From positions 19,123,302-19,187,301 of the forward strand of contig JAHRHZ010000283.1 in assembly GCA_024137785.1 (NCBI GenBank): a DNA stretch of 64,000 bases, read 5' to 3'. The position numbers were made by a program, and so were the translations under genes. Each line of letters opens with the position of its first letter. Position 1 is the first letter of the stretch. Origin of the DNA: Ginglymostoma cirratum (taxonomy: Eukaryota). Positions 773 through 62,897 of this stretch are shown here, piece after piece. Below the pieces are notes generated by a model. The model searched no databases and was not told where the DNA came from. It worked only from the letters and a program-made list of their open reading frames with translations.

Positions 773-912
773 CAGTTCTGATGAAAGGTCACAGTCCTGA
801 AACATTAACTTTGCGTCTCTCTTGAAAAAAATGCTGCCTAATCTGTTGGATTTTCCCAGCATTTTCCATTTTGATCTGATGATTTCCGGCATCCAGAAAG
901 CTTTGTTTTTCA
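773..912 (+). mobile_element. Old PLE pLTR 3' fragment (family B-like) beginning at a degenerate hammerhead motif
   Basis: cagttCTGATGAaaggtcacagtcctGAAACATTaact followed by atgctgcc...ttttcccagcat, similar to the family B copies at 38081-38164 and 62766-62897. Confidence 0.6.
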
Positions 913-2499
913 TTTTTATGGTGTATTTTGAATGACAAAGGATCACAAAGGGCATAGCCAGCTAGAGGATTAATAAACAGGCAATGTTTATTTCAGTTGT
1001 TCTAATTGCCTTTTCTTTGGAAAAGACAGGAGGCTGATGTTTCAATACTTACACCTTCTTAGCTTAGTGAGTAACTCAGGACAGGGGAAGTAATGTATGC
1101 ATATATTTTAAATGATGAATTAGTAACAAAGTGCTGTTTATTATTAACTGGTTAAAAAGGCATTGCATAATCAGACTTCAAGGAAGTCAGTAATAATGTG
1201 TTCCACAGCTTTAGTTAGCAGCTGCTTGCCTTTAATCACCAATTTCCTCGTTTTTTTCAAGTTTATGTAAAAATCAAACTGATCTGTTGATTATCAAGAA
1301 CAATTTATCCATCATGTAGGAGGTTTGACTTCAATTATTCCATCATTTCAAAAATTGCTTCTAAACCTTGAATTAGAAATAGTAGGGAGAGTGGAGTGAA
1401 GAAAAACACTTGGATTTAACCAATGGAAAAATATCCATTTTATAGACAGGGCAATCCTCTCAATTTGGCTGCTATGTTGCAACTGATTTGGAGAGATGGC
1501 TGTTTCTCTGCAAGGTCACTTTGCTCTGTATTTTTATGAAGTAATGAGCTAATAATGTTGTTATTTAAATATCACTGAATGGTTTTGCATGAGTCAAAAC
1601 TAGAATGGTTGATTCAAGTTCTTTTTCAGTGAGGGAATTTGAGTTGGAAGTATGCTTATCTTTTGAGGGATCTAAGAGACTATAAGTGATGATTTGGCAT
1701 AACTTTATACTTGTGAATGGATCAGTGCTTAATGGATATGACGTGCTTTCTTCTAAGCCCTCGTACATTTTTTTAAACTCTCATTTTCCTGGAGATGGAC
1801 AATGAAATCTTTTCTTTCTCTTTGCAAAATGCCTCCATGCCCAATCCTTACAACATTTCTGGGGCATAGATCCAGACGCTGTATTTTCCATTCCATAACC
1901 CATCTATAACTCAGATATGAGTCTTCAACATGAGTGACAACAGATTCTCCACCATAGGCTGGGTGAAGCTTGGTCTTTCTAAAGCTGACGCAGAAGAATT
2001 TTCCATAAAGATTAATGACAGGCATCAGATATAGGGGATACGATTGACTTTTCACTCCCTTTAATTCAAGGCCATGCTTGCAAGGAAGTCATCTGAGCAT
2101 AGTGTTTAGGCCTGGGAGAGAGGTTGGACAATATTATATGCATCTTTTGTTGTAGGGCCAAACATGATATTTTTCTTTAAATATAGCAAACATGAATTAT
2201 AAACAGGACCTTACCTCTACTGTGAGGCTACTGGAGAGAACTATCTCCTCACGTCCCAGTGTTGGAAATCTGAAATGAATGTTACTCAAGAGGTCCTCAG
2301 GCCATGCCTGTGGAGAGGGAAACAATTCGTCTCCCAGGTCATTGGAATCTCTAATGTCAGAAATGGAAGGTAACAATCCTTGATTGCACTTAAAATTGGT
2401 TAGGAAATGAAAAGTAGGGGAAAAACAATTCTTTGTGTTTCCTTCAGATTGAATCATGATCCTTACATAAGGTTGGGCCATAAGATTCCCAGCCCCTAA

Positions 2500-2865
2500 G
2501 GGGAGGCAATGGCCTGGTGGTATTATCGCTGGATTGTTAATCCAGAGACCCAGATAACATTCTGTGGACCCGGGTTTGAATCCCGCCACGGCAGATGGTG
2601 GAATTTGAATTCAGTAAAATATCTGGAATTAAGAATCTAATATGATCGTGAACTCATTGTCAGAAAGACAAGTTGTCAGGAAAGACCCATCTGGTGCACT
2701 AATGTCATTTAGAGAAGGAAATTACCATCCCTACTTGGTCTGGCCTACATGTGACTCCATACCCACAGTAATGTGGTTGACTCTGAACTGCCCTCTAGGC
2801 AATTACAGATGGGCAATAAATGCTGTCTGGTCAGCGATACCCTCATCGTGTGAATGAAAAAAAAA
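2500..2865 (+). mobile_element. tRNA-derived SINE (second shark SINE family) with CR1-clade LINE-derived tail
   Basis: Head ggggaggcaatggcctggtggt (A box) and gggtttgaatcccgcc (B box); tail gggcaataaatgctg...gaatgaaaaaaaaa; near-identical copies at 14922 and 17634. Confidence 0.85.
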
Positions 2866-3250
2866 GTTGTTCCAAAAGTGTGACAAAGTTCCCATTGAAC
2901 ATAGATTTCTATGCATCTAACATTCCTGTATCTTATGCACAGAGCATACCCATATCCAGTGAGGAAGGATATCATGCAAGTCTACAGATAATTGTGGAGC
3001 CTGGAGCTCCACCTGCACAACAATGATTCATCATGATCACAAAACCAGAGCTGAGTGTCAATCCGAATTCAAGAGTTCGAGGTTAGATTGCCAGTAACTA
3101 AACATTATGTTTGGTATCCCTTTCACGCTTTGAGGGACGCTGTAAATTGCATTGAACAAGTTTGACTTTTTTTATTATATTGCTTAACTAAATTGGTGAT
3201 TGCAAAGAATTTATCAGTTGATTCTATGTAAGGTTACCCTTCATGAATGC

Positions 3251-4119: not shown

Positions 4120-4605
4120 CTGCAGTCATAAGAACTCATATCTATGACTTTAGGTTCACAAACTAAATTCTGTTTGTTTTCCAATCTTGTTTCAATTGCA
4201 AGAATATCACCTGACTGTGTCTCTTCTCAACAATATGCTGGGTAAAAAGATAAGATCACTTTAAGCTGGTCTGATGTTGGTGTGTTTCAGTTCACTTAGA
4301 GTTGCTGAGATGACATGCACTTTTACATGCATGTCGTAGTCTGGACCATTGAGTAGTGACGATAGAGGCTCTGATGCTCTTTCCACCACCTGGCTGACCG
4401 GAAATCACTCCTGCTCTGACAACCCCTACTGTTGTGTGCTTGAAGGATTTCTACATTGATATTCAACCTGTTCAGCCATGTCATGAGTATATCTTCCTTT
4501 GCCATCAAGTTCTGGACTGGCATTGTAACCTACAGCTTCTGGATCAGACCATTGGTCCACAAAGTCTCCTTCAAGTGTTACAACCTAGCTTTCCTCCAAT
4601 AGCAG

Positions 4606-4690
4606 AGATAAAAGGTACTGCAGATGCTGGAGAATCCGAGATAACAAGCATGGGGCTGGATGAACACAGCAGGTCAAGCAGCATCATAGG
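4606..4690 (-). mobile_element. PLE family A 3'-end insertion (85 bp) with 14 bp TSD
   Basis: agataaaaggtactgcagatgctggagaatcc...gcatcatagg; flanked by tcctccaatagcag at 4592-4605 and 4691-4704. Confidence 0.9.
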
Positions 4691-5430: not shown

Positions 5431-6100
5431 TGTAGGAATGAGCAAAAATCCCAGTCATTTAGAATACTGGACCAAAACCCCTGGATTTTTAACAGAACTT
5501 TTTAAAACAAAAAGAAAGGCAGCTGGGCTATGGTCTGGAATACACAATCATGGGGATAGCTGTCTGGAGCCATGGTTCAGTTAGAAATCCTACTCACGCC
5601 TCAGCACTAAAGGAACAAAGAACCAGACCTAAGGCAACAACTTCAGACATTTTGGACTCTTAAGAGGTATCAAGGCATTCAACTTCAATTAGTATTCATT
5701 CACAGAAATACTGGACATTCCACTTAATCAAAACACATTTACACCTACTCTAAATGATCAGGAAGCAAATTCACCACAAAAGGGACAACAGAAACACAAT
5801 GGATAACACAGATTTGAGAGGTGATAATGGAGCACACAGTCTGCATAACTGCTAGCCCTGATCTTAGAGAGAGAGCCATCTCTGCAGCTACCTTCAGAAA
5901 AGGGATCCCAAACAGCTACTCTCCCTGAGAACTATCTGCACAGTTATCTCCCTGAAACCTCCCGACACAGGGCTGTCCCGTACCAGGGGAACCAACGGCA
6001 AACGACCTCCGAAAACCACCAACCTGACTGACAAGGCCTCAGACACATCTTGAGGTGAACACCAGCTCATAAAACCACCACAAAGTAAGAAAATTGTTAC

Positions 6101-6439
6101 AGAGATAATAGGAACTGCTGATGCTGGAGAATCTGAGATAACAAGGTGTAGAGCTGGATGTACACTGCAGGCCAAGCAGCATCAGAGGAGCAGGAAAGCT
6201 GACGTTTCGGGCCTAGACCCTTCTTCAGAAATGGGGGAGGGGAAGGGAATTCTGAAATAAATGGGAGAGAGGGAGAGGCGGATAGAAGATGGATAAAGGA
6301 TCCTGCTCCCTTGACCTGTCTGTCCTCCCTGGATCGACCTATCCCCTCCCTAACTCCCCACCTACACTCACCTTTATTGGCTCCATCCCCGCCTCTTTGA
6401 CCTGTCTGTCTCCTCTCCACCTATCTTCTCCTTTATCCA
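6101..6439 (-). mobile_element. PLE family A insertion with 5' inversion (twin-priming-like)
   Basis: 6101-6300 is the 3' end on the minus strand. 6301-6439 is the adjacent upstream segment in opposite orientation and overlaps it by tcctttatcca. Both match the 3' UTR at 38460-38740. Confidence 0.88.
6201..6228 (-). ncRNA. Minimal hammerhead ribozyme motif (PLE family A)
   Basis: Reverse complement CUGAAGA-A-GGGUCUAGGCCC-GAAACGUC: intact core, GGG/CCC stem II, palindromic ACGU stem III, GUC cleavage triplet. Confidence 0.7.
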
Positions 6440-7024: not shown

Positions 7025-7240
7025 CAAAAACAGAAATTGCTGGAAAAGCTCAGCAGGTCTGGTAGCATCTGTAAAGAGAAATCAGGGTTAACGTTTCCAT
7101 TTGAGTTCTGAGGAAGGCTCACTCAATCCAAAACACTTGCTCTGGTTTCACTCCACAGATGCTGCCAGACCTGCTGAGCTTTTCCAGCAATTTCTGTTTT
7201 TATTTCTGATTTACAACATCTGCAGTTCTTTCGGTTTTTA
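7025..7240 (+). mobile_element. PLE family B fold-back (hairpin) insertion
   Basis: aaaaacagaaattgctggaaaagctcagcaggtctgg... is inverted against ...ccagacctgctgagcttttccagcaatttctgttttt; degenerate ctgagga...aaaac hammerhead at the centre; ~35 nt extra 3' tail. Confidence 0.85.
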
Positions 7241-8520: not shown

Positions 8521-8840
8521 TTTCCGTATTTACCTTTATAAATGTATTTTTCTTTCTTTGCTGACAATCTCATAGCTGAGGTGGAAAGCATTCAATTGAA
8601 GACCCAATTTAACATAGATTGAAAGATTTAATGAATGTTGCTTCCTAACTCATTGCTTTTCCTTGTGCTTTTTGACTATGTATAATACCCAGAGAACTTA
8701 GTTTCTGTTTCAAGTAATGTGTATCATCTAATGTTCAAACCGTTGTCATGGACACTGTTGTGCCTAACTGTTTTTCTTGTGCCTCCTTTAATTGTGTTGT
8801 ATCTTGTATAAGTGGGCAGGATGTCAAAATTATGACAATG

Positions 8841-10275
8841 ACCACAGAAAGGGTAGGGCCGATCAAGGATTGTAAAGGGAGTTTGTGCATGGACCCTAAA
8901 GAGATAGGAGAGGTCCTTAATGAATACTTTTCTTCGATATTCACAACTGAGAGGGACCTAATTGTAGAGGAGGACAGTGTGAAACAGACTGGTAGACTAG
9001 AGGAGGTCGAAGTTAGTAAGGAAGATATACTTGGAATTTTGAGGAATTTGAAGATAGGTAAGTCCCCCGGGCCTGATGGGATTTATCCAAGGATTCTATG
9101 GGAAGCGAGGGAAGAGATCATAGGGCCTTTGGCGATGATCTTTTCATCCTCGCTGTCCACGGGTATAGTGGCAGAAGATTAGAGAGAGGCAAATGTCATT
9201 CCCTTGTTCAAAAAAGGGAATAGGGATAACCCCAGAAATTACAGACCAGTTAGTCTTATGTCAGCGATGAGCAAATTATTGGAAAGGGCTATGAGAGATA
9301 GGATTTATGACCACTTGGATAGGAACAGTTTGATTCGTGATAGTCAGCATGGATTTGTGAGGGGTAGATCATGCCTCATAAACCTTACTGAATTCTTTGA
9401 AGAGGTGACCAAACATGTGGATGAAGGTAGAGCAGTGGATGTGGTTTACATGGATTTAAGTAAGGCGTTTGATAAGGTTCCCCATGGTAGGATCATGCAG
9501 AAGGTAAGGAGGCAAGGGATGGGGGGAATGTGGCAGATTGGATTCAGAATTGGCTGCCCCTTAGAAGAGAAAGGGTGGTAGTGGACGGAAAATAATCAAC
9601 ATTGAGCTCAGTTACGAGTGGTGTACCACAAGGATCAGTTCTGGGTCCTCTCCTGTTTGTGAGATCTTTTTAAATGATTTGGATGTAGGAGTGGAAGGGT
9701 GGATTAGTAAGTTTGCGGATGATACAAAGGTGGGTCGAGTTGTGGATAGTGCGGAGGGCTGTTCTAGGTTACAAAGGGACATTGATACGATGCAGAGCTG
9801 GGATGAGAAGTAGCAGATGGAGTTTAACCCTGAAAAGCGTGAGGTGATTCATTTGGAAGGACAAATTTGAAAGCAGAATACAGGGTTAACGGACAGATTC
9901 TTGGCAGTGTGGAGGAGCAGAGGGACCTTGGGGTTCATGTCCACAGTTCCCTGAAAGCTGCCACCCAGGTGGATAGAGTTGTTAAGAAGGCATATGGTGT
10001 GTTAGCTTTGATTAATAGAGGGATTGAGTTCAAAAGCTGTGAAGTTATGCCCCAGCTATACAAAAGCCTGGTTCACCTGGAGTATTGTGTCCAGTTCTGG
10101 TTGCGTCATTGCAGGGAAGATGTGGAAGCGTTGGAAAAGGTGCAGAGGAGATTTACCAGGATGTTGCCTGGAATGGAGGGAAGGTTGAGACAGCTAGGGC
10201 TTTTCTCTTTAGAACGACGTAGGATGAGAAGGGCCTGTTCTGTGTGCTGCGTGCTCTGTGCTGTGTTCTATTGTG
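8841..10275 (+). mobile_element. CR1-clade LINE (HER1-like) ORF2 reverse transcriptase, 5'-truncated and disrupted
   Basis: ORF track and sequence show KSPGPDGIYPRIL, NYRPVSL, QHGFVRGRSCL, VDVVYMDLSKAFDKVPH, SGVPQGSVLGP, FADDTK, HLEYCVQFW, with stops and frameshifts. Confidence 0.95.
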
Positions 10276-10489
10276 TAGCTCCATGGTTCAGTGATGTGTC
10301 GGTCATTGCTAAATAGTTGGACATATGTGGATGCAGTGAAGGAGTGATTGTCAAGCTAGCAACAATGGAAAGGTGTGTGAGGGTGCGGTGAAGTCAGAAT
10401 CCTGACTGTTCGGGACTGCTCATGTGTGAGTGATGAGGTTGCAGTTATGTTGAACAGTGTTGGTGGTAGCTGGTGTGGTTATGAGATTT

Positions 10490-14921: not shown

Positions 14922-15262
14922 GGGGGAGATGATGGCATAATAGTATTATTGCTGGACTGTTAATCCAGATACTCAGGTAATGTTCTTGGGGACCTGAGTT
15001 CAAATCCCAAAGTGGCAGATGGAATTTGAATTCAACAAAAATCTGGAAATAAGAGTCTAAAGATGACCATTATCGATTGTCAGAAAAAACCCATCTGGTT
15101 TACTGCCTTCTTTAGGGAAGGAAACTGGCATCCTTACGTGGTCTGGTCTACACGTGACTCTAGACCCACAGCAATGTGGTTGACTCTTAACTGCTCTCTG
15201 GGAAATGCAATAAATGCTGGTTTAGCCATTTACACTCTTATCCCTAGAATGAATAGAAAAAA
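14922..15262 (+). mobile_element. tRNA-derived SINE (family of 2500-2865)
   Basis: gggggagatgatggcataatagtattattgctggactgttaatccaga...gagttcaaatccc...gcaataaatgctgg...gaatgaatagaaaaaa. Confidence 0.85.
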
Positions 15263-15391
15263 TGAATATTCAGAGAATGGTCAGTTTTTGAAACTTGCTA
15301 CCACACATTTTATTGAAACAAGCAGCTTAGATTGTTTAAAGGGGAAAACAATGATTATATTAGAGAAAGTAGTATAGAAAAATATACAGAG

Positions 15392-16580: not shown

Positions 16581-16735
16581 GGTAATACAGAGTAGAGCTG
16601 AAGGAAAATTTCTGAAGAAGAGTCTAGGCCCGAAACGTCAGCTTTCCTGCTCCTCTGCTGCTGCCTGGCCTGCTGTGTTCCTACAGCTCCACACTGTGTT
16701 ATCTCAGACTCCAGTGTCGGCAGTTCTTACTATCC
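16581..16735 (+). mobile_element. PLE family A-like insertion with short 5' inverted arm, hammerhead motif (16612-16639) and 14 bp TSD
   Basis: TSD ataattagaaatgc at 16567-16580 and 16736-16749; ctgaagaagagtctaggcccgaaacgtc. Confidence 0.88.
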
Positions 16736-16940: not shown

Positions 16941-17595
16941 AGAACAAAGAAGAACAAAGAAAATTACAGCACAGGAACAGGCCCTTCAGCCCTCCAAGCC
17001 TGTGCCGATCCAGATCCTCTATCTAAACCTGTCACCTATTTTCCAAGGATCTGTATCCCTCTGCTCCCTGCCCATTCATGTATCTGTCTAGATACATCTT
17101 AAATGACGATATCATGCCCACCTCTACCACCTCTGTTGGCAATGCGTTCCAGGCACCACCACCCTCTGCGTAAAGAACTTTCCACGCATATCTCCCTTAA
17201 ACTTTTCCCCTCTCACCTTGAAATCATGACCCCTGGTAATTGAGTCCCCCACTCTGGGAAAAAGCTCCTTGCTATCCACCCTGTCTATACCTCTCATGAT
17301 TTTGTAGACCTCAATCAGGTCCCCCCTCAACCTCCGTCTTTCTAATGTAAATAATTCTAATCTACTCAACCTCTCTTCATAGCTAGCACCCTTCATACCA
17401 GGCAACATCCTGGTGAACCTCCTCAAAAGGTTCACCCTCTCCAAAGCATCCACATCCTTTTGGTAATGTGGCGACCAGAACTGTACGCAGTATTCCAAAT
17501 GTGGTCGAACCAAAGTCCTATACAACTGTAACATGATCTGCCAAATCTTGTACTCAATACCCCGTCCGATGAATGAAAGCATGCCGTATGCCTTC
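16941..17595 (-). mobile_element. CR1-clade LINE 3' end
   Basis: ORF 17124-17597(-) AYGMLSFIGRGIEYK...LVRPHLEYCVQFWSP...RRRLRGDLIEVYKIM; (ttctttg)-type tail. Confidence 0.93.
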
Positions 17596-17633
17596 ATAAT
17601 AACACTAACACTAGATAACCCTGATTCTGATTA

Positions 17634-17990
17634 GGGGGAGGCAATGGCCTAGTGGTATTATCACTGTACTGTTAATCCAGAGACCAGATAATGTACTGGG
17701 GACCTGGGTTTGAATTCTGCCATGGCAGATGGAGGAATTTGAATTCAATAAAGTATCTGGAATTAAAAGTCTAATGATGACCATGAATCCATTGCCAATT
17801 GTTGGAAAAATCCACCTCATGTCCTTTAGGGAAAGAAACTACCATCCTTACCTGGTCTGGTCAACATGTGACTCCAGACCCACAGCAATGTGGTTGACTC
17901 TTATCTGCCCTATGGGCAATTAGGGATGGGCAATAAATGCTGCCCGGCCAGTGACGCTTTCATCCTGTGAATGAATAAAGAATAAAAAAA
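17634..17990 (+). mobile_element. tRNA-derived SINE (family of 2500-2865), full length
   Basis: ggggaggcaatggcctagtggtattatc...gggtttgaattctgcc...gggcaattagggatgggcaataaatgc...aataaaaaaa. Confidence 0.88.
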
Positions 17991-24025: not shown

Positions 24026-24136
24026 AAGCGTGGGGCTGGATGAACACAGCAGGTCAAGCAGCATCATCGGAGCAGGAAAACTTGACGTTTCGGGCCTAGA
24101 CCCTTCATCAGAAGGGTCTAGGCCTGAAACGTCAAG
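24026..24136. mobile_element. PLE family A hairpin abutting an assembly gap; intact hammerhead motif on the minus strand (24084-24111)
   Basis: cttgacgtttcgggcctagacccttc-atca-gaagggtctaggcctgaaacgtcaag near-perfect palindrome; reverse complement CUGAUGAAGGGUCUAGGCCCGAAACGUC. Confidence 0.88.
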
Positions 24137-24536
24137 NNNNNNNNNNNNNNNNNNNNNNNNNNNNNNNNNNNNNNNNNNNNNNNNNNNNNNNNNNNNNNNN
24201 NNNNNNNNNNNNNNNNNNNNNNNNNNNNNNNNNNNNNNNNNNNNNNNNNNNNNNNNNNNNNNNNNNNNNNNNNNNNNNNNNNNNNNNNNNNNNNNNNNNN
24301 NNNNNNNNNNNNNNNNNNNNNNNNNNNNNNNNNNNNNNNNNNNNNNNNNNNNNNNNNNNNNNNNNNNNNNNNNNNNNNNNNNNNNNNNNNNNNNNNNNNN
24401 NNNNNNNNNNNNNNNNNNNNNNNNNNNNNNNNNNNNNNNNNNNNNNNNNNNNNNNNNNNNNNNNNNNNNNNNNNNNNNNNNNNNNNNNNNNNNNNNNNNN
24501 NNNNNNNNNNNNNNNNNNNNNNNNNNNNNNNNNNNN
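24137..24536. other. Assembly gap (400 N)
   Basis: Run of N. Confidence 1.
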
Positions 24537-25423: not shown

Positions 25424-25657
25424 TACCTACACTCATCTTTACTGGCTCCATCCCCGCCTCTTCGACTTGTCTGCCTCCTCTCCACCTATCCTCTCCTCTA
25501 TCCATCCTCTATCCGCCTTCCCCTCTCTCCCTATTTATTTCAGAACCCTCTTCCCCTCCCCCATTTCTGATGAAGGGTTTAGGCCCAAAACGTCAAGTTT
25601 TCCTGCTCCTATGATGCTGCTTGACCTGCTGTGTTCATCCAGCCCCATGCTTGTTAT
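25424..25657 (+). mobile_element. PLE family A 3' UTR/pLTR insertion with 13 bp TSD; hammerhead motif with GAAA>AAAA change (25567-25594)
   Basis: TSD catgggttgttaa at 25406-25418 and 25658-25670; ctgatgaagggtttaggcccaaaacgtc. Confidence 0.9.
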
Positions 25658-26469
25658 CATGGGTTGTTAAAGATTGGGCACTATGGAATTTATTCGAAAA
25701 AATATTTTGCCCAAAAAAATGAGAAAACGCAGCTTGTAACAACTGGGCTGCAGTAATGCCCCACAAACATGACACTGTGCAAATAATCTGCTTGTTCATG
25801 CCATAGAATCTTTCATGCCAATCACAGAGACTACAAGAGGCTTGACTTAACAGTTCATTTGAATGGTGGAACTTCTTTTCAAAAAAAAAAGCATTTTGTA
25901 CTGGACTAGACTTTCTGATTAGATGTTATGCTCTAGCCTGTGTGGTGGATTGAATTAGTAAACTTCTAATTCCGAAATGAGAGCATTATTAACTGAGCCA
26001 CAGTTGTACAATTAAGTTCATCATCATTCCGTCACTCTTGTAACAATGGTTACTTGCAAATGTTTCTTATTTTCTTTGTGGCTGATATTTACCCAGCTGT
26101 AAAGTTTCTGCATCCAGTGTTCAGTTTATGGTTGTCTGCGATTTTGAAGGAGCAACTATTTATATAAGACTATGGAGGAAGGACACAGAGTTCTGGGGAC
26201 AGCTGTGCCTTTAGAAATGTGTCTTTTTTTCCAAAAAAGACCACTGTCCTCTCGCATCACCCTCAGTGTTTAGTAAATTGTACAAATCTACACCCGTTAT
26301 TCAATTTATGCTTTTCTGGTGCTTTCTTCCTTTTTCAAGAGTGCAAACTTGTTGCCCAATAGCAAATTATTCTTGACCTGGATCAGTGAAAAGAAATATT
26401 AACTTCAACATTTAAACAGCTTAAATTTGATTTATCAACGGCAGTGGTTCAAAGACTGACGTGGTAGAA

Positions 26470-29189: not shown

Positions 29190-29398
29190 ACAAAAACAGA
29201 AGTTGTTGGAAAAGCTCAGCAGTTCTGGCAGCATCTGTGAAGAAAAAAGTCAGAGTTAACGTTCGAACTCTGATGAAGGACCCGAAACATTAACTCTGAC
29301 TTTTTCTTCACAGGTGCTGCCAGACCTGTTGAGCTTTTTCAGCAACTTGTGTTTTTGTTCCTGATTTACAGCATCTGCAGTTCTTTCAGTTTTTATTT
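29190..29398 (+). mobile_element. PLE family B hairpin insertion
   Basis: Inverted arms acaaaaacagaagttg...gtcagagttaa / ttaactctgac...caacttgtgtttttgt around ctgatgaaggacccgaaac; cctttctccc on both flanks (29180-29189, 29407-29416). Confidence 0.88.
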
Positions 29399-36000: not shown

Positions 36001-36133
36001 GGATAAAAGGTACTGCAGATGCTGGAGAATCCGAGATAACAAGCATGGGGCTGGATGAGCACAGCAGGTCAAGCAGCATCATAGGAGCAGGAAAACTGCT
36101 TGACCTGCTGTGCTCATCCAGCCCCATGCTTGT
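36001..36133 (-). mobile_element. PLE family A hairpin insertion with 14 bp TSD
   Basis: TSD taaccttagtgatg at 35987-36000 and 36134-36147; arms aacaagcatggggctggatgagcacagcaggtcaagca / tgcttgacctgctgtgctcatccagccccatgcttgtt. Confidence 0.92.
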
Positions 36134-36468: not shown

Positions 36469-38080
36469 GGGTACTGGATCCCCGTGGCAGCTGCTGACCT
36501 TTCCATTGATGCACCCGGACAGAGGGGTTACTGTGAGATTTGAGGTAAAATGAAGACGAATACTCACGGTGTTGATGGAACATAGATATCTCAGCATCCT
36601 TGCTTGGAGTGATTCTGGTCTTCTCCTGCGGGATACAGGGATCCCATCTTGTGAGGGCTGAGGTGTCTAATGTTGAGCACTGTTCCACCTATCTGGGTCC
36701 TTTCTACCAGTTTGTGGGTTCTTTGCCCCTATGATCAGAGAAGGGGAGGGATTGAGTGAGATGGAAGTGGGTAGTCCATCTGTTGGTGTAAGTGGTTAAA
36801 AGGTTGTGAGGTATTTCAAGGGAGTGAGGACGCAGTGCAGAGACCAGGCAGGACTGTGGTGTAGGAGGTTGGGGTGGATGAGAGTGAGTGAGGGAAGATG
36901 TTGCATGCAATAGTAAGTTGATAGAACATGAGCCTTGCTGAGATGTGGGTCAGCTAGCAGAGAGATTGAGTAGAGACTTATTCCTACATTTCTGGTTGTT
37001 TCTCTGCAATCTGGAGCTTGCACTGACCCAACTGATGGCCTGGGCACAGCATCCTCTAGTAGTCTTCTGGGAAGAGGACAATCCTGCTTTGCACCAGCTA
37101 CTTTATTAGGACCTCCAGATCCACATCAGAGAATTGTGACGCCATCTTACTCTTCTCTGACACATTCAGTTCCCGTCCTTGACTAAGCAGGTTAGCTTCA
37201 GAATGCCACGCACATTTGAGTGCACAGCAGCCTTTTAAATATGGTGTGGGTGCCAGGGATTTTGGACTTTTACTGGATATCTAGTAATTGGTGGGTTGTT
37301 TTGGGAATAGTAAGAAAATAATAAGATCAGATAAAAAAGGATGATATGGGGTGAGGTAGGTAAGTAATAAGACAAGTCTGGCAAGAAATCCCACTAAACC
37401 TCATAGCAAAACCCATCCAAAAAACTCAACACAACTTGCACTCAGCCAAAAAAATGTAAGATACAGCACACAAAAACAAAGTTGCTGGAATAGCTCAGCA
37501 GGTCTGGCAGCATCTGTGAAGGAAAAAACAGAGTTAACATTTCAGGTGCAGTGACCCTTCCTCAGAACTGATGGTGGTTGGGAAAACGCCAGTCTATATG
37601 CAGAAAAAAAGGGAAGGGGATGGGGTAGGAAGTCAGCGATAGGGATACAGCCTAAAGAGAGAGAAAGACAGTTGGACAGACAAAGAGTTGATAATGATCA
37701 GGCTGGGACGGTGAATTGTTGTTAATGGGAACTATTAGTCACTAATAACAGGTAGTGTGTAATGGCAGGCTATGTGGTAACAAGGCCTGGTGAGTGGGGC
37801 AGGGGGCTGGGACATGGGAGAGTTTAGGCCTCAAAATTATTGAATTGATATTGAGTCCAGAGGTCTGCAGGGTCCCCAAGTGGTCCACATAGCCTGCCAT
37901 TACACATTACCTGTTATTAGTCCCCATTAACAACTATTCACCTTCCCAGCCTGATCATTATCAACTCTTTGTCTATCCAACTGCTCTTCTCTCTCTTTAG
38001 GCTCTAACGTATCATTTACTCCCAACCCAATCCCCTCTCCTTTTTTCTGCATATAAACTGACATTTTCCCAACTATCATC

Positions 38081-38118
38081 AGTTCTGAGGAAGGGTCGCT
38101 GGACCCGAAATGTTAACT
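38081..38118 (+). ncRNA. Minimal hammerhead ribozyme motif (PLE family B), CpG-decayed stem III
   Basis: AGUU-CUGAGGA-A-GGGUC-gcug-GACCC-GAAAUGUU-AACU: stem I AGUU/AACU, 5 bp stem II; family consensus GAAACGUU inferred from aacgtttc at 7090. Confidence 0.62.
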
Positions 38119-38164
38119 CTGTTTTTTCCTTCACAGATGCTGCCAGACCTGCTGAACTTTTCCA

Positions 38165-38777: not shown

Positions 38778-39344
38778 CTGAACTTTTCCAGCAACTTTGT
38801 TTTGATTCCTGATTTACAGCATCCATAGTTCTTTCGGTTTTTATTAAGATACAGCCCAATGTGATTATAAATGAGCATTGTGCACTTTTGAGTATTTCTA
38901 GCTATGGCAGGAGTCTAATTGGTTTACGTACATATTTGGAATGAAGCAGCATTTGATTATTTTGATTTTGTATTGTTGCTATGATTCAAGATGCATGCTT
39001 TGACGAGTTGAATATAAATAAGATGCAGGTCAATTAGATCATGTTGGAGAAGACTCAACATCCAATAGATTGGACTGTGGGTGAACCTTATCTTATAAGC
39101 TAAAAGAAAAATTCATTCTCACGCAGTCTGATGACTAATTGCATTCTTTATCCCTTGAGACAATGAAAATTCCAATGCAGAAGTTGTATAATGTTCATGT
39201 TTAACTCATGCATAAGGCGTTTTTGGAATGGAAATAATTTATCATGTCTTGAACTGTTGGGCGAAGGGATTGGCATTTAACATACAGTGGCAAGAGGCTT
39301 GGGTGCAGTGTTTTGTTATCGGTAGATTATTAAGTAGAATAATA

Positions 39345-39899: not shown

Positions 39900-41053
39900 T
39901 TAATTTAGACATTTTGTGGGATGTGGGTGTCGCTGGTTGGCCAGCTCTTATTGCCCATCCCTAGTTGCCCTTGAGAAGTTGGTGGTGAGTTGCCTTCTTG
40001 AACTGCTGCAGTTCACCTCGTGTGGGTTGACCCACAATGCCATTAGGGGCAGAATTCCGGGATTTGGATCCAGCAATGGTGAAGGAACAGATGGTGAGTG
40101 GCTTGGAGGGAACTTGGAGGTGGTAGTGTTCCCAGATGTTTTCTGCCCTTGTCCTTCTTGATGGAAGTGGTCATAGTTTGGAAGGAACTGTGTGAGGATC
40201 TTTGGTGAATTTCTGCAGTGCGCCATGTCGATAGTACACGCTGCTGCTACCAAGCGTTGGTGGTAGAAGGAGTAGGTGCTTATGGTTACAGTGCCAGTCA
40301 AGCGGGCTGCTTTGTCCTGGATAGTGTTAAACTTCTTCAGTGTTGCTGGGGCTACACTCATCCAGGCAAGTGGGGAGTATTCCATCACACTCCTGACTTG
40401 TGCCTTGTAGATGGTGGACAGGCTTTGAGGAGTCAAGACATGAGTCACTCGCTGCACTATTCCTAGTCTCTGACCTGATCTTGTAACCATTGTGTTTATG
40501 TGATGAGTCCAGTTGAGTTTCTGATCAATGATAACTCCAAGGATGTTGATAGTGGGGGATTCAGTGATGGTAACACCATTGAATGCCAAGGGGTGATGGA
40601 TAGATTGTCACTTATTGTGATGGTCATAGCCTGGCATTTCTGTGGACGAATGTTACTTGCTACTTGTCAACCCAAGTCTGGATATTGTCCAGATCTTGTT
40701 GCATTTGTACACAGATTGCTTCAGTGTCTGAGGAGTCGTGAATGGTGCTGAACATTGTGCAATCATTGGCAAACATCCCCATTTTTGACCTTATGATGGA
40801 GGGAAGGTCATTGATGAAGCAGTTGAAGATGGTTGGGCCTAGGATGCTACCCTGAGGAACTCCTGCAGAGATGTCCTGGAGCTGAGATGGCTGAGCTCCA
40901 ACAACTAGGACCATCTTCCTATGTGGCAGGTTGACTGTAACCACTGTCGAGTTTGTACCAATATCCATTGATTTCAGTTTTGCGAGGGCTTCTTCATGCC
41001 ACACTCAGTTGAATGCGGCCTTGATGTCAAGGGCTGTCACTCTCACCTCACCT
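39900..41053 (-). mobile_element. Second CR1-clade LINE family (RT + 3' UTR), partner of the tRNA SINE
   Basis: AGVPQGSILGPTIFNCFINDLPS, MFANDCT (FADD motif), ILGVIIDQKLNWTHHI, YKAQVRSVMEYSPLAW. Confidence 0.92.
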
Positions 41054-41205
41054 GAGTAATCTGTGAGCAACATCTGTTTTCACAAATGACCCTGAGAACC
41101 TGATCTCCAGGATGCAAATTTGCACAACAGGTCTCTCAATCGCTCACTGCACCATTAGCAGAAGATTCACAGACACCCTGGAAAAACACATTTACATCTT
41201 TATTT

Positions 41206-41300
41206 CCTGAAGAAGGGTCTAGGCCCGAAATGTCAGCCTTCCTGCTCCTCCGATGCTTCTTGGCCTGCTGTGTTCATCCAGCTCTACACCTTGTTATCTC
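41206..41300 (+). mobile_element. PLE family A pLTR insertion starting at the hammerhead (41207-41234), 13 bp TSD
   Basis: TSD tacatctttattt at 41193-41205 and 41301-41313; ctgaagaagggtctaggcccgaaatgtc. Confidence 0.9.
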
Positions 41301-44932: not shown

Positions 44933-45029
44933 ATAAAAATCTGAAATTGCTGGAAAAGCTCAGCAGCTCCAGCAGCATCGGTGGAGAGAAATCAGAGTTG
45001 ACGTTTTGGGTCCAGTGACACTTTATCAT
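44933..45029 (-). mobile_element. PLE family B single-arm fragment ending at the hammerhead
   Basis: aaattgctggaaaagctcagcag...gagaaatcagagttgacgttttgggtccagtgacactttatca. Confidence 0.8.
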
Positions 45030-45841
45030 AATCATAAGCGACCGAAAGAACCAAACCAGACTGTAACTTAACCTGATTTACTTTAATATCCATTGATTTC
45101 AGTACCCACCAATATTTAAGCAAAGAGAATGGATGCACAAGAGGCTAGAGTCATAAGAACGTTGTGTTTTGGGGGGGGTTTCTGTGTAAAAACAGATGCA
45201 GTCTCATCTGTACAACTCACGGTGAAGAAATCTGTCACTTATTGAGGTACCATATAGCTTTTATAGTTTAATAACACGTATCGAAGCAATAATTATGACG
45301 TTTACAAAAGTAAACATATTTAATAGAAAAAATAAAAGGAGTCTTATTTCAGTAGACTTTACAAAAAGTTTGAAGAAAAATGTTTTGTTATGGGCTACTG
45401 CACTGTTTGTACTATGCTCACAATTTTGGCTCAATTGAAATAATATCACCATGTACTATGTATAAAGATAACCAAAACAGAAGGGTTTTTATGTATCTTG
45501 GTTGTTTCTGACATTCTGTTCATCCTTGAAGCTATCTCCAAATCTTAAACATTTTCATATTTTTAATTTTTGTCATAAAAGCCAAGTAAAATAATTTATA
45601 TTGAATTTTTGCTCAGGCCTGTATTACAATTCTTTGGATCTCCCCATACCTAACCTATCGTAAACAATTCTGGTATCAAAAGACTGACTAAACAGCTTTT
45701 CCTCAGGTAAGAAGCAATTTGAACATCGGTTTACAGCAGAATTTTTGAGTTATGTTCATTCAATTTTTCCTGGTCTTCAATCTCTCTTAGATACAAGGTA
45801 CATGTGCAAAAGAGACCTCGCGTATAAATTAGACCTTGTAT

Positions 45842-51358: not shown

Positions 51359-53180
51359 TGCTTTTATTCATTCACAGGTTGAGGGCATCACTGGCCGAAC
51401 CAGCAATTCTTTACCATTCCTGGTTACTTTTGAGAAGGTGAACTACCTTGAACCACTACAGTCCAATTGGTGTAAGTTTACACAAAATGTCAATAGGGGA
51501 GGAATTCTAGGACTTTGACCCAGCGACTGTGAAGGTACGACAATACATTTCCAAGTCAGGATGGTGAATGGCTTGGAGGGGAAGTTGCAGGTGATATTGT
51601 TTCCATGTGTCTGCTGTGTTTGCCATTCTAGATGGTAGTGCTTGTGTGTTTGGAAAGTGCTGTCTAAGGAGTCTTGGTGAATTTCTGCAGTGTGCCTTGT
51701 AGACAGTACACATTGCCGCTACTGAGCGTCACTGGTGGAGTGACTGAATATTAATGGATTTATGTGAATCAAGCAGCTGATTTATCTTGGATGGTGTCAA
51801 GCTTCTTGAGTGCTGTTGGAGCTGCAGCCATCCAGGCAAGTGGGGAGTACTCCATCACACTCCTGACGTGTGCCTTTTAGATGGTGGACATATGCTGGGG
51901 GGGTTAGGCGGTGAGTTACTCGCTGCAAGATTCTGAGCTTTAGCCCTGCTCTTGTAGCCACAGAGCTTATGTGGTGAGTCCAGTTGAGTTTCTGGCTAAT
52001 AGTAACTCCCAGGATGTTGATAGTGGGGGATCGTGTGATGGTAAAGCCATTGAATGTCAACAGTTAGATTGTCTGTTATTGGAGATGGTCATTGCCTGGC
52101 ACTTGTGTTGAGCAAATGTCACTTGCCACTTAACACTTGCCCAAACCTGGATATTATCTGAGGAACTGTAAATGGTGCCAAACCTTGTGCCATCATTTGG
52201 GAAACATCCCCAGCTGAAATTGGGCCGAGGACACTACCCTGAGGACCTCCTGCAGCGTTGTCTTGGAGCTGAGATCATTGACCTCCAGCAACCACAACCA
52301 TCTTCCTATGTGACAGATATGACTGCAACCAGCAGAGTGTTTTCCCCTTTAATCCAATTGACCCCAGGTTTAGTTGAGCTCCTTGATGCCATATTCAATC
52401 GAATTCAGCCTTGATGTCAAGGGTTGTCACTCTCACCTCACTTCTAGAATTCAGCACTTTTGTCCATGCTTAAACTAAGGCTGTAATGAGGTCAGGGGCT
52501 GAGAGGCCCTGGCGGCTCCTAAACTGAGCATTAGTGAGCAGGTTATTGCCAAGCAAATGCTTCTTGACATCCCCATTGAAGACAGCTTTGATCACTTTAC
52601 TGATGATCAAGTGTAGACTGATGGGAGGATTGTTGTAGATTTGCTAGGTCGGAATGTCCTGCTTTTAGCATACAGGACATTCATGGAAAATTTTTCACAT
52701 TGTTGGCAAATGCCAGTGTTGTAGCTGTAGTGGAACAGCTTGGCTAGGGATATGGTAAGCTCTGGAGCAAACGCCTTCTATTCAGTACGGAGTTGTGGGA
52801 AGAGTCCTTGCAGACTCAGAACATTTCTCTATCTACAAATGCTGCCAGACCTGTGTTTATCCAGCATTCTATGTTTGTTTCAGGTTTCCAGCATTCAAAG
52901 TATTTTGTCTTTACTCAGTACTATTACAGGAATGTTGCCAGACCCCATATTCTTTGCAGTATTCAATGCCTCCAACCATTTCTCGATATTATGTGGAATG
53001 AATCAAGTGGTCTGAAGATTGGCAACTGTGATACTAGAAACCTCTGAAGGAGGCTGAGATGGATCATCATCCCAGTACTTCTGGCTGAAGATTGCTGTGA
53101 ATAATTTTTTCTCTATTTTGCACGGATGTGCTGGTCTGTCCCATTATTAAGGATCAAGATATTTGTAGAGCATCCTACAT
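51359..53180 (-). mobile_element. Second CR1-clade LINE family (as 39900-41053), longer degenerate copy
   Basis: TFNGFTITRSPTINILGVTISQKLNWTHHI; gccttgatgtcaag (LDIKA); tgatgatcaagtgtagactgatgggaggat (PISL.LII). Confidence 0.88.
52825..52915 (+). mobile_element. Old PLE 3' tail fragment inserted in the LINE
   Basis: aaatgctgccagacctgtgtttatccagcattctatgtttgtttcaggtttccagcattcaaagtattttg. Confidence 0.55.
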
Positions 53181-53324
53181 GTTGAGAGGCTATGATAGCT
53201 TGCCAGAGTTTATCAACGTTGAAAGTAAATTGGGTAATTGAAAGAAAGGAAAATAAAGGGCAGTGGAATCAAAGAAGGCACGTTGGATGAAGTCATATGG
53301 AAGACAGGGTAATTGGACCAAGCA

Positions 53325-53491
53325 ACATCATAGGAGCAGGAAATCTTGACGTTTCGGGCCTAGACCCTTCATCGGTCTAGGCCCGAAACGTCAAGTTTTC
53401 CTGCTCCTATGATGCTGCTTGACCTGCTGTGTTCATCCAGCCCTATGCTTGTTATCTCGGATTCTCCAGCATCTGCAGTACCCTTTATCTC
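53325..53491 (+). mobile_element. PLE family A hairpin insertion, 15 bp TSD
   Basis: TSD taattggaccaagca at 53310-53324 and 53492-53506; palindrome gacgtttcgggcctagacc-cttcatc-ggtctaggcccgaaacgtc. Confidence 0.92.
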
Positions 53492-53995
53492 TAATTGGAC
53501 CAAGCAGCCAATTTCCATGAACTCAAGAAGCACCCATAGTTCCTTTTGAAATATATTGATACACCATACCACTCTTGAAACAGCAGTGTAAAAAATAATT
53601 GTCACTGTGAATTATTCATCTTTTGAAATAGTTACTTTGGTTTAATTTTTGGTAGTCCTGTCAATTGAAGCAACGGAAAATTTCTTGAAGAGTTGACTGA
53701 ATTCTGGCGAATCCTAAACTGGTTTTTCATGTTCAAGGTTTTCCAACTGATGGGATGTTGCAAAATAACTGCGTCAACCTGTGTGTCAACTGAATGGAGG
53801 AGGGCAGCCTTTTCATACCCCGCACACTTCATGCAAAAACTTTCCAATACATTTTCGTCCCTCTAAAAGCACAGGTGCTCAGTTGATAAGAACCATTTTT
53901 ATTTTAAATTCTTTTCAAATTGCAATAGGGAGCATTCCATCCAGAATTTCAGCAATCAACAGTTCCACAGTTGCGGAGCTTAACTTTATTGAGCT

Positions 53996-55975: not shown

Positions 55976-56315
55976 GATAAACTCAGCTGGATTTCTCCAG
56001 CACTTTCAATTCTTATTTCAAATCTCTAGCATCTGCAGCTCTTTGCCTTTATCAACATTTTATGTTCTATTTAGTAATGAAGCCATACCCTTCTCCAAAT
56101 AAAATGTACTTAAACAGTTTGCTAGAAAAAATAGGCAACCAATCATAAGTTTTCCATGATTTGAAAGAAGGGACAATTTTATTATCTGCAAACCCTGAGT
56201 GAAAAAAAGAATCAAGTTGCGCTGTCTAGCATTCATGCACACAGGTGCAAATTTGAAAAGCATGGGGCTGGATGAACACAGCAGGTCAAGCAGCATCATA
56301 GGAGCAGGAAAACTT

Positions 56316-56343
56316 GACGTTTCGGGCCTAAACCCTTCATCAG
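56316..56343 (-). ncRNA. Minimal hammerhead ribozyme motif, left arm
   Basis: Reverse complement CUGAUGA-A-GGGUUUAGGCCC-GAAACGUC, core intact. Confidence 0.7.
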
Positions 56344-56363
56344 AAAAATGATGAAGGGTTTTT

Positions 56364-56391
56364 CTGATGAAGGGTTTAGGCCCGAAACGTC
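56364..56391 (+). ncRNA. Minimal hammerhead ribozyme motif, right arm
   Basis: uuu-CUGAUGA-A-GGGUUUAGGCCC-GAAACGUC^aag; short stem I UUU/AAG. Confidence 0.7.
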
Positions 56392-57479
56392 AAGTTTTCC
56401 TGCTCCTATGATGCTGCTTGACCTGCTGTGTTCATCCAGCCCCATGCTTGTTATCTCAGATTCTCCAGCATCTGCAGTACCTTTTATCTCTGATGCAAAT
56501 TTGAAAAGGATAGTTCCAGTTCAAAAGGAAGATGAAAGGAATATATAGTTTAAAGTCTTTAGGGTGTCCTTAGTGGTGTTAAAGGTGTTAGCCCGAGGTC
56601 ATGGTTTTTCTCCGGTTCCCTTTGGCTTGAGTCTAAAATTCGTCTCCTCCAAACTTCCATTTACAGCTGCCTGAAACTTGGCAGGTTTGTACATTCAATT
56701 GTTTAAATTCCTCATTTCCAAGTTTAACAATTGTAGGCAATGTCTTTCATCTACAATATGGAAACTTATCATGCAGGTGTAAATCGAAATAGGAGATAAG
56801 AGTTTCTTCGCATTCGACTTTGTGGATAAATTTTCAATATTTTTTGACAAGAAAGTTCATTTCAGTTCAGACAATTTCATGCCTTACCTTTTGACATTAT
56901 GAAGCACAGATAACTGATTTGCTGTGATCATTTTCAATCGGTGAGTTCCCTTTTTAAAACCATTTTATTCTTAAAATCAGATAATGGAATTTGCATATCA
57001 ATTGTTTTTAAAATTCATGATCATACTATTGTGCTCAAGTCATATTGTACCCAATGTCAGCTGGAACTGATGGTTGCACTACTCGGAGTTACTACATCAG
57101 AACAAATTCTGCTGTATTAGAACAAATTATACCGTTGCTTTTGCATGGATGTGGACAGATTTTTGGGTGTAGCCTTAGTAAGGTTGAGTGAGATGATATA
57201 ATTTCTCTGAAATTGATTTGAAGTTTGATTTTTGGAGTGAGAGGTATGAGGGTGTTGGTGGAGGGAGAGGAAAGGGTTTATTCTTCTATTGCTTAATTCC
57301 TGTCCTTTTAAATCCTGTTTGAGTTTGGGCAATGCCAAGGCATAATTATGCAGTCATATATAAAATCTGGGTGTTGATGTTAAAATAGATTTAAGACTAT
57401 ATTAAATTTAAACAAAAAGACTCCTGGACATCAATAGTGACCTGAATTCGTAACAATGTAGAAAATGACCAGACCTAAT

Positions 57480-57922: not shown

Positions 57923-58050
57923 TGGCTAGGTGGGTTAGCCATAGGTTACAGGGGTAGGGTGTGGCTGGGTCTGGGTGAGATGTTCTTCGGAGGGTCAGTG
58001 TAGACTGGGTGGGCTGAATGGCCTGCTTCCACAGTACAAGGATTCTATGA
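57923..58050 (+). mobile_element. HE1-type SINE 3' fragment
   Basis: aggtgggttagccat...gggtctgggtgagatgttcttcggagggtcagtgtagac...gggctgaatggcctgcttccacagtacaaggattctatg. Confidence 0.8.
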
Positions 58051-60099: not shown

Positions 60100-60365
60100 T
60101 GAGAGAGGAGAGAGATTTGTAAAAAGACATGAGGGGCAAGTTTTTAACACAGTGGGTGGTTCGTATGTGGAATGAACCTCCTGAGGAAGTGGTAGATGTG
60201 AGTACGATTGCAATGTTTAAAAGATATTTGGATAAGTTACATACATAGGAAAGGTTTGGATGGATATGGGCCAGGAGCAGGCAGGTGGGGCTAGTTCAAT
60301 TTGGGATTATGTTCGGCATTGACTGGTTGGACCAAAGGGTCTGATTCCATGCTCCATGACTCTGT
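60100..60365 (+). mobile_element. CR1 (HER1-like) 3' tail
   Basis: gagaggagagagatttgtaaaaagacatgaggggcaagtttttaacacag...gatatgggccaggagcaggcaggtggg...ggaccaaagggtctg. Confidence 0.88.
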
Positions 60366-61456
60366 CTATCTCCAGAAATAAACTTTTTATTTGTGATTAT
60401 ACCAAACCCTATTGAAGTCAGGGAATAAACTCTAAAGCTTTATGGGTTAAATCATTAGTATTAATTATGCCAGTTACAGTATATTTGAATGCAAATTATA
60501 CAATGTTCATTCTTCTTTAAGTAGAAATTTTGTTGTTGAATGTAAATAACAGTAATAGCAAATAATATGTATATCCTAGGGTGCTTCAGAAGTGCATTAT
60601 CAAACAAAATTTGACACTCTACCAAATATTAGTGACTAATAGTTCGCTGAAAGAGAGGTTTCAAAGTGCATCCTAAAGGAAACAGCACTGCAGAAGTTTA
60701 GGGGTTGAATTCCAGACCTCAAGATACAAGCCCGATTGTGCAGGCACCATGCTATGGCAATCTCACACATTCACCATGGATCACAGCTAGTGCAGCAAAC
60801 ATACTGCATGTACATCAACCGAATGGGCATGTCTCAAATCTTCAGTCGACTGAAGGAATACCACCTTCAGTCTGGGAGTTCCAGTATAGGATGTCAAGGA
60901 CCTTAGCTGCAATCAGTCCAGGGTTTGGACATGGTCAATAGGCTGCTTGGGGCAGTCATTGCCAGGGAGAACATATCACTATAGTCCAGGCAGTGGGCCA
61001 TGATCATTACACCAGTCAACAAGGCAGGGAGTCGTGTTACGTCAATCAGGGATCTGCACACACATCAGTCAGGAGTCTGGTCTGTGATCAGACAGGGCTG
61101 CCTATCCAAGATGGTCAAGAGATCGGACCATAGTCAGTCCTGGGAGTCAGCTCAATTAAAGTCAAGTTGAATCTCCAGGGGCCATCTCTGTGATAGGGAA
61201 GTTGGGAAGTCAATTCTGTGGATTGGAAACAGCATGTAAGGATGCAAAGGAGACAATAAAGGAGGAAATTCACCATATATGGGGGGACAGGGGAGATAAT
61301 GCATCGGAGGAAGGGGATACTGTAGGAGAGGGGGTTATTGACAGCCACATCCACCCTGGCCTCTAAGGTGGGGGAAGGGGGAGAGAGTAATGTAGCACAA
61401 TGTTTGACTTGACTAGGCTGACTAGTCTGCATTCTACACTGGGTATTAGGGGTAGG

Positions 61457-61656
61457 ATTGATTTGATTTAATTTGATTTATTATTGTCACACGTGCCAAA
61501 AGTATTGGTTTGCACGCTAACCCATCAAATCACACCTTACAAAGTCCACCATGGTAATAGAACAGAATGTAGAATGTACTGTTACAATAACAGAGAAGGT
61601 GCAGAGAAATATCAACTCTAATATAACTCTAAACTCCATTCATAAGTCTGATAACC
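61457..61656 (-). mobile_element. Rex1/Babar-like LINE 3' end
   Basis: (gattt)n tail then attattgtcacacgt...tacaataacagagaaggtgcag...ccattcataagtctgataac. Confidence 0.55.
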
Positions 61657-62662
61657 TGCACAGCTTGGTTCATAAATAATAATAGAATTACAAATGTGCT
61701 CTTCTATTTGCAATGGACTGCCAGCAGTGCCACCCATGTGCCGTCCCACTACTTGCCTGGTGTAAGGCTAACTCCTGCCTGGCAGTATTTCTCCAGGGAT
61801 GGGGATGGGTCAGGAGGGATGCTCTTTGGAGGGTTGATATGGGCTGAATGTCCTGTTTCCATAAAGCCAGGCTTTAAAAATGGTGCTGGTGGTGCAAATC
61901 CCTGCTGGCTAGTACTTCTGCCTCTAGCAAGAGGGAATAATAGACAGGCCGGGTCCCACAGATGCATGATGTGTAGGCAATAAGAAATGCTTCAGAGTAT
62001 AGCATGAGAAAACCAGCTAGGACTCCCGAAGAAACCTTCCATAAAACTTGCTGAAGTTGACACTTAACTGATTTCTGGTAAAATTGAGCCCACCCATTAG
62101 AATAATTTAATGTGACTTTTTCAAATTCCTTTTCTTTTAACGCATTATTGAAGTCATGATTTCTAGCAGCCATCAGTTAGCAACTCTTTGCCAACAACAT
62201 GTAAATATAAATGACTCCACGTTGGAGCCAAGTGGGAGCTCTGACTCAATCTGAGACTCTGGTATTTCTTAGTGTTGAGTCAGGCCTGGCTCAGATTTCC
62301 CTTTAGTTGCAACAGGTTCAACGTGTGACCTAAGTTTAGCTTTACTGTCGATGATGACACACAAACACTGGGGGAATGATGAAGAAATCAGTTATTGTAT
62401 CAATTTCCTGATAATCAACAACGACAGATGTTCTGCAGTTAACAGGTGTCACATTTTAAATTGTCTTTTTGTTGGGGGATTTTTCATTATGAACAATTCA
62501 TGAAGCTACATGGCTGACAACTGTCAGAACTCCACAGATGTCGAGGCGACATGTGCTCTCGTTGCTTCAAGTCCTGTGAAGGAATACCGATTACTTAGAA
62601 AGCTGCCAATATTTAAAGACATAGTCTTTGAAACATATTTGTCAAACACTATGCATTCTGAC

Positions 62663-62897
62663 ATAAACAGAAATTGTTGGAAAAGCTCATCAGGTCTGGC
62701 AGCATCTGTGAAGAAAAGTCAGAGTTCACATTTCAGGTCCAGTGACCCTTCCTCAGAACCTTCCTAAGGATCACTGGACCCGAATTGTTAACTCAGATTT
62801 TTTTTCAAAGATGCTGCCAGACCTGCTGAGCTTTTCCAGCAACTTCTGCTTTTGTTCCTGATTTACAGCATCTGCAGTTCTTATCATGTTTTTATTT
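62663..62897 (+). mobile_element. PLE family B hairpin insertion, 11 bp TSD
   Basis: TSD tgcattctgac at 62652-62662 and 62898-62908; arms meet at gacccttcctcagaac / aaggatcactggacccgaa. Confidence 0.9.

Follow-up and report, generated by a model that had tools for sequence, protein, structure and literature searches.

Why do so many short repeats in one stretch of DNA begin, or meet head-to-head, at a small ribozyme motif? The stretch is a 64,000-nt piece of the Ginglymostoma cirratum genome (assembly GCA_024137785.1, 4.36 Gb; contig JAHRHZ010000283.1, positions 19,123,302-19,187,301, forward strand), referred to here as the window, in which two repeat families, A and B, carry a CUGANGA...GAAAC motif of the hammerhead type. 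A sequence-only reading of the window had taken these repeats for copies of Penelope-like elements (PLEs) and had noticed that their 5′ breakpoints cluster at the motif. We find that the breakpoint peak is a real and strong feature of this known class of elements, that it lies at the 5′ edge of the hammerhead, and that its mechanism is to be sought between an RNA end and a local barrier.

Breakpoints cluster at the base of helix I

For the breakpoint density we used a random genome sample of 160 stretches at round coordinates, of which 66 consisted entirely of N and which together gave 898,804 readable bases out of 1.6 million. Coordinates are counted from the C of CUGANGA (0), which puts the predicted scissile bond at +28 in family A and +30 in family B. 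Copies were detected only through the segment downstream of +32, and the anchored alignment was then extended upstream. Each insertion was counted as one event, copies with a detected 5′ end at +40 or beyond were excluded, and copies ending at gaps, stretch edges or the reference end were treated as censored (30 of 104 random events in A and 2 of 79 in B). The interval -10..-1 was picked after a first look at the data, and the p-values assume independent insertions; a second set of loci, chosen by the 3′ segment only, was fetched after the interval had been picked.

Results showed clearly that breakpoints are concentrated just upstream of the motif. In family A, 18 breaks fell within 557 nt at risk at -10..-1 vs. 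15 within 11,084 nt upstream, a 24-fold excess (p=9e-16), and family B gave 35 breaks within 264 nt vs. 5 within 1,539 nt (41-fold, p=2e-24). The rate at -10..-1 was also nine times higher than that at +10..+39, both in A (10 breaks within 2,853 nt) and in B (29 within 1,995 nt). The second set of loci reproduced the excess (34-fold in A, 54-fold in B). Breakpoints are most frequent at -3/-4, where helix I has its base, and the peak recurred in every subfamily, among copies of at least 88% identity, and when only solo copies were counted. Stop rates were 21/34 for subfamily A1, which has a mismatch in helix I, 7/38 for subfamily A2, which has a fuller helix and a count lowered by assembly gaps, and 86/112 for B. 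Family A has a second shoulder, with 16 breaks at 0..+9; in A1 this shoulder extends over +3..+9, at +5/+6 just past the first AG downstream of a pyrimidine tract, and was not seen in B. At the scissile-bond interval (+25..+34) there was no significant excess over the flanks (ratio 2.9, p=0.08 in A; 0.7 in B). The clustering read from the window is therefore borne out, and is sharper than had been noted. It had been placed on the 5′ side of the ribozyme and not at the scissile bond; the latter holds, while the peak proves to lie outside the catalytic core, where helix I begins on its 5′ side.

The motif itself fits a minimal type I PLE hammerhead, CUGANGA-N-helix II-GAAA-palindromic pair-UH plus helix I. 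Helix II has five pairs, with U-G/U-A/C-G exchanges between subfamilies, an extra base follows A9, and the CG palindrome is present. Helix I has exactly four pairs, ending at -4 in A1, A2, the old A copies and B, with a mismatch in A1 and old A. A search of the window with Rfam called no hammerhead, only hairpin (microRNA) matches to palindromes, and the hammerhead region folded no better than shuffled sequences (z -0.9 to +2.1). The predicted ribozymes may self-cleave as dimers or with the assistance of a protein.

The peak is not an artifact

Four artifacts were considered and rejected. Simulation of 400 copies per family with uniform breakpoints gave a flat distribution (22 and 22 at -10..-1; 5-95% error approximately -5..+4), which speaks against an alignment artifact. 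The 12 old A copies were given a separate reference, because a shared one produced false breaks at -36..-65, and the flanks at the peak have no shared sequence except in a few pairs, which disposes of a subfamily effect. As to decay after insertion, target-site duplications (TSDs) accompany 28 of the 99 solo copies at the peak and 3 of the 99 shifted controls; they also flank 53 of 82 palindromes. Collapse of longer palindromes in the assembly, named in the sequence-only reading as a possible cause, does not explain the peak in the assembly and short reads examined, as solo copies and raw reads keep the edge. In RNA-seq run X22 (same species label), mapped on a long B copy, 1,719 loose read ends were seen at -3, running into mixed flanks (agreement 0.34), and depth rose about tenfold across the site; since raw reads leave the element there, the edge is not an assembly product. 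A second run, X23, placed only 207 reads on the element, and L145 is a poor reference at the motif. Assembly gaps often adjoin young A2 copies (window 24137-24536; loci L095 and L315), and young palindromes are therefore probably under-counted.

Insertions in the window

The insertions in the window are the following (arm ends in element coordinates, window positions in brackets).

773..900, plus strand: old copy resembling family B, from -5; its hammerhead core begins at 778; 3′ end approximate, read by eye as too diverged for the alignment pipeline
4603..4690, minus strand: family A tailed copy truncated at +40, away from the motif; 14-bp TSD
6100..6300, minus strand: family A tailed copy, -73..+129, reading through the hammerhead
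7025..7240: family B palindrome, tail-less minus arm to +22, tailed plus arm from -4 (7104)
16608..16734, plus strand: family A copy with tail, beginning at -4
24026..24136: family A2 palindrome, minus arm to -2 (24113), plus arm cut by an assembly gap (24137-24536, 400 N)
25425..25658, plus strand: family A copy without tail, -142..+92
29190..29397: family B palindrome, arms ending at +24 (29263) and +16 (29278), 14-nt filler
36002..36128: family A2 palindrome, one arm ending at +27, close to the scissile bond, the other at +49
37455..38164: long family B palindrome (-318/-211) that extends as far as the ORF end, with hammerheads at 37565 (minus) and 38085 (plus)
[quoted passage not shown]
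41204..41300, plus strand: solo family A1 tail-less copy starting at -3, 13-bp TSD
44944..45031, minus strand: solo family B copy starting at -2
52835..52894, plus strand: remnant of an old family B copy, from +48
53318..53492: family A2 palindrome, arms ending at +2 and +9 (53373/53374)
56258..56492: family A2 palindrome, both arms ending at -3 (56346/56361), 14-nt element-derived filler
62661..62896: family B palindrome, tail-less arm to -3 (62759), tailed arm from +6 (62766)

Ten of these 17 insertions break at the motif, or 11 if that at 36097 is counted. The ten sites listed earlier are confirmed, eight with the longest arm at -5..-2 and two inside the motif (29278/29263 and 53373/53374); that list had missed seven insertions, which break at +40 (4690), -73 (6300), -142 (25425), +27/+49 (36097), -318/-211 (37884), -489 (38162) and +48 (52835). 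In the region 38162-38845 the nested family A copy sits in the 3′ part of a B palindrome arm and is followed by a short inverted tail piece (38746-38770).

The window also contains a second dispersed repeat family resembling short interspersed elements (SINEs; families D2 and D16, at 2500-2865, 14923-15268 and 17635-17982), and decayed reverse transcriptase (RT) fragments of the long interspersed element (LINE) type at 8718-10316, 17124-17630 and 39948-41004, which we take to be CR1/L2-like.

Families A and B are 3′ ends of Penelope-like elements

Long copies run upstream through a C-rich 3′ untranslated region (UTR; ~330 nt in A, ~260 nt in B) into an open reading frame (ORF) with RT and GIY-YIG motifs. 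In the ORF of locus L052 both domains score under the Pfam cut-offs (RVT_1, E=3e-4; GIY-YIG, E=0.019), with YIDD and LYIGET motifs visible. RT followed by a C-terminal GIY-YIG domain in a single ORF is the arrangement of endonuclease-bearing (EN+) PLEs. In family A, on which this examination was made, sequence past the tail runs straight into the ORF leader and N-terminal part (L204, L307, L309, L312), the partial-tandem layout of the PLE pseudo-long terminal repeat (pLTR); exact matching gave 209 such leader-linked A2 copies genome-wide. The optional 30-40 bp tail, the inverted 5′ copy and a short TSD (9-17 bp) are present as well, and one young subfamily has 31,939 exact matches in the genome. 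These ORF, pLTR, tail and TSD features uphold the reading of the repeats as PLE copies: judged by sequence, families A and B are the 3′ ends of Penelope/Poseidon-type (EN+) retroelements, "Poseidon-type" resting on architecture. An identity as non-LTR (long terminal repeat) retrozymes was rejected, as head-to-tail hammerhead units were absent: no adjacent same-strand tandem copies were found among 137 A and 103 B hits of the random set.

Several side observations concern the elements themselves. In the family A ORF (L188, L204), the N-terminal part is joined to RT by a repetitive linker that is rich in Ala/Thr/Pro and varies in length. At L125:2650-3001 a composite A2 insertion comprises pLTR +16..+129 and ~75 nt of ORF leader, then jumps to the 3′ UTR at -75, in a template-switch-like manner. 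Loci L070, L148, L089 and L025 contain one or more additional repeat families whose hammerhead has a longer helix II, and L154 and L128 contain another B-like family.

Palindrome arms end at two 3′ sites, one each

The 3′ ends fall into two classes 34-38 nt apart, near +94/+129 in A and +97-101/+135 in B, corresponding to tail-less and tailed copies. Both 3′ ends could be classified in 70 of 82 palindromes, and all 70 joined one tailed with one tail-less arm, none having arms alike. Solo copies are about half tailed and half tail-less, so that strict arm pairing has p ~1e-21 under independence. In the remaining 12 palindromes one or both arms were shortened. The longer arm may be of either kind; tailed and tail-less arms stop at one same coordinate. 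Of 48 B palindromes, 32 have a longer arm that stops at -10..-1 and only 2 have one that passes -13, with the shorter arms scattered downstream. We infer that priming uses a different one of two sites for each target end, in line with the Poseidon element of Anolis carolinensis (PAc; PMC11167929; this and the other papers are cited from the portions of their text available).

Inserts of 85-145 nt make up 36/74 in A and 56/74 in B. The suggestion of a preferred size of ~100-130 nt thus stands in so far as most inserts are short, but size is not a ruler, because arms differing by 34 nt in length share their stop coordinate. Short inserts can also arise where no hammerhead is involved: in Chlamys the median insertion length is 128 bp (PMC9977147), and canonical hammerheads are described as absent from most of these elements (PMC8557442).

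What ends the cDNA at helix I

It had been proposed that the folded ribozyme, or a protein bound to it, stalls RT or triggers second-strand priming. A folded monomeric hammerhead would be expected to stop RT at ~+31 or within the core, but at the observed peak the whole motif has already been copied. RT coming from the 3′ side meets the 3′ strand of helix I and the core first, yet stops only once both have been copied, which makes simple stalling at a monomeric fold unlikely. Neither the folding of the region, no better than shuffles, nor the stop rates, which do not track helix I strength (A1 vs. A2), agree with it. Second-strand priming as a snap-back via helix I predicts a short arm at the scissile bond, which was seen in only 3/47 palindromes.

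We tentatively favor a different explanation, to which we give a little under an even chance: internally primed cDNA runs off a template whose 5′ end, probably the transcription start, is at ~-4. The target would be cut in a staggered way and each end primed at a different one of two internal sites, ~95 and ~130 nt downstream (+94/+129 in A). Both cDNAs would run to the RNA 5′ end, and would then be trimmed and joined head-to-head into a palindrome, or one would be lost to give a solo copy; longer copies would derive from tandem, circular or upstream-started RNAs. In the anole element, priming is internal at two adjacent sites bounding the tail, both target strands are nicked and extended, and uncleaved RNA is the main substrate (PMC11167929). 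In agreement with this in vitro result, cleaved RNA is not the main template here. The anole RNA requires ORF sequence beyond the priming sites (PMC11167929); with the leader following directly after the tail in our elements, priming should therefore be near the 5′ end of the RNA. The peak has a sharp upstream edge and trails off into the motif, a shape that fits cDNAs running off an RNA end and then being trimmed, and the leader-bearing copies L312 and L214 begin at -2 and -3, respectively. Positions -5/-4 read CA, within an initiator-like context, in each of A, old A and B. T-runs of at least 4 precede CTGA in 11/42 A peak copies vs. 0/62 long copies, a faint hint of end-of-template slippage, although host T could do likewise. 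An internal pLTR promoter is known for Penelope of Drosophila virilis (PMC2377424).

Several points weigh against run-off from a single RNA end. No excess of a cap-type G was found before the junction (14 vs. 12.1 expected in solo copies, 9 vs. 14.8 in palindromes). Leader-bearing 5′-pLTR copies often pass the site: the exact upstream motif is present in 31 of the 91 listed (contigs C1-C53, matched by eye), as against 44 of the 100 listed for all copies (also by eye), which is not a difference (Fisher p=0.18). Corrected for a motif retention of 11/13, read-through is ~40% and ~52%, respectively, and L307 extends to -785 and L309 to -95. With read-through so frequent, -4 cannot be the sole RNA end, and with rates so alike one local barrier would explain both. 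A(-4) is the last helix I pair, so the initiator match is not independent evidence. In D. virilis an intron end has been mapped to helix I, and the start lies 46+75 nt upstream of it (PMC2377424, PMC4209133). Molecule starts did not pile up in the RNA-seq, whose fragmented, apparently unstranded polyA library shows starts poorly. A mixed RNA pool (linear from -4 plus tandem or circular) and a barrier passed half the time both fit the read-through.

Such a barrier is the most serious of the rivals, possible though in our judgment unlikely. Here the RNA would continue upstream, but in about half of cases RT would go no further than the hammerhead's 5′ edge, because an element protein, or trans-pairing in a dimeric hammerhead, holds the 5′ strand of helix I so that it is unwound last; the stalling idea would thus survive, moved to the 5′ edge. 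The constant four-pair helix I ending at -4, the like read-through of all and leader-bearing copies, the missing cap G, and the coincidence in B of the strongest helix I with the highest stop rate agree with it. Minimal hammerheads have been proposed to act as dimers (PMC4209133), and the anole protein is a predicted dimer that assists the ribozyme (PMC11167929). Yet a 4-bp AU-rich helix in a region folding no better than shuffles is weak, A1 stops in 21/34 despite its mismatch, and in the anole work truncation of the template 5′ end shortens the product, with no stop at the ribozyme mentioned in the available text (PMC11167929). Trimming of the RNA by a 5′-to-3′ exonuclease up to the edge of a protein-bound hammerhead, the ribozyme serving as a protective cap and RT running off the uncapped end, would likewise put the edge at the base of helix I and leave no cap G, and partial read-through would reflect a trimmed sub-population; we consider it improbable, given the weak fold and the absence of a pile of molecule ends in RNA-seq (an uninformative library for this).

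Causes at the DNA level appear very improbable. The GIY-YIG nuclease might cut the cDNA duplex just upstream, joining might favor a short T-run, or the cDNA might snap back. ATT is the preferred site of the anole nuclease (PMC11167929) and occurs at -4..-2 in family A, and many junctions show short microhomologies; but B, without ATT there, stops most, the T-rich ATT tract of A at ~-36..-27 attracts nothing (0 breaks at -50..-21 among 46 copies at risk), and the snap-back geometry is confined to the 3/47 palindromes. [quoted passage not shown] B does have AG at -4/-3, and the A shoulder at +5/+6 follows the first AG past the pyrimidine tract. No common exon sequence was found upstream of the peak junctions, however, and no GT..AG among the 15 joints listed for each of two RNA-seq mappings (223 and 236 further joints lay outside those lists). 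Nor does any diagnostic site split short from long B copies (best uncorrected p=0.017, 92 positions), and differences within A are subfamily differences.

In a further reading, the hammerhead might act mainly uncleaved, as a pairing and boundary device in which a dimeric protein holds two RNAs by their hammerheads, each RNA is primed at a different site from one end of the cut target, and the cDNAs end at the base of helix I. We regard this role as rather unlikely; if true, such a rule would explain solo inserts of ~100/135 nt, one-tailed palindromes and minimal pLTR regeneration.

Comparison with known systems

How PLE insertion is completed, how the pLTR is regenerated, and what role the weak hammerhead has are stated as open in the portions of the PLE literature available. 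Any model must now accommodate cDNAs that end at the base of helix I and not at the scissile bond, palindrome arms that use two priming sites one each, and passage of the site by roughly half of the cDNAs. Tens of thousands of genomic copies underlie these constraints, which can be tested in the existing anole in vitro system.

PAc (PMC11167929) shares with our elements RT followed by a C-terminal GIY-YIG domain, a hammerhead in the pLTR, two 3′ ends a tail-length apart and ~95-135 nt downstream of the core, and no sign of cleaved RNA as template. That paper maps the RT start; its available text holds no 5′ breakpoint distribution or strand-specific start difference, whereas palindrome arms here use the two sites strictly one each. 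Described EN+ PLE insertions (PMC3846280, PMC8557442) likewise show 5′ truncation, partial tandems, inverted head-to-head pLTRs, a 30-40 bp tail at one end and short TSDs, but the truncation is called variable and no hammerhead-linked hot spot is described in the text available. The tail on one inverted arm was already described there qualitatively, and self-priming on an antisense template was proposed (PMC3846280); two distinct 3′ ends together with outer TSDs would fit priming from both target strands better than self-priming. Minimal metazoan PLE hammerheads (PMC4209133) have the same core boxes, extra base after A9, G10.1-C11.1 pair, palindromic 15.2-16.2 and short helix I, and occur mostly as single motifs in truncated copies and as opposite-strand pairs; cleavage and circularization were proposed for them, as compared with no breakpoint excess at the scissile bond here. 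No published report of a peak at the hammerhead 5′ edge was found in the literature outside subscription papers, and the PAc supplement figures (Fig. S2) may bear on this.

The favored run-off from an RNA end also recalls two better-known reactions. In LTR retroelements, internal priming near the RNA 5′ end and run-off yield minus-strand strong-stop DNA, a short cDNA of fixed length, and in L1 twin priming the second nick also primes. Unlike these, the short cDNA of the elements studied here itself integrates, and both arms copy the same RNA segment.

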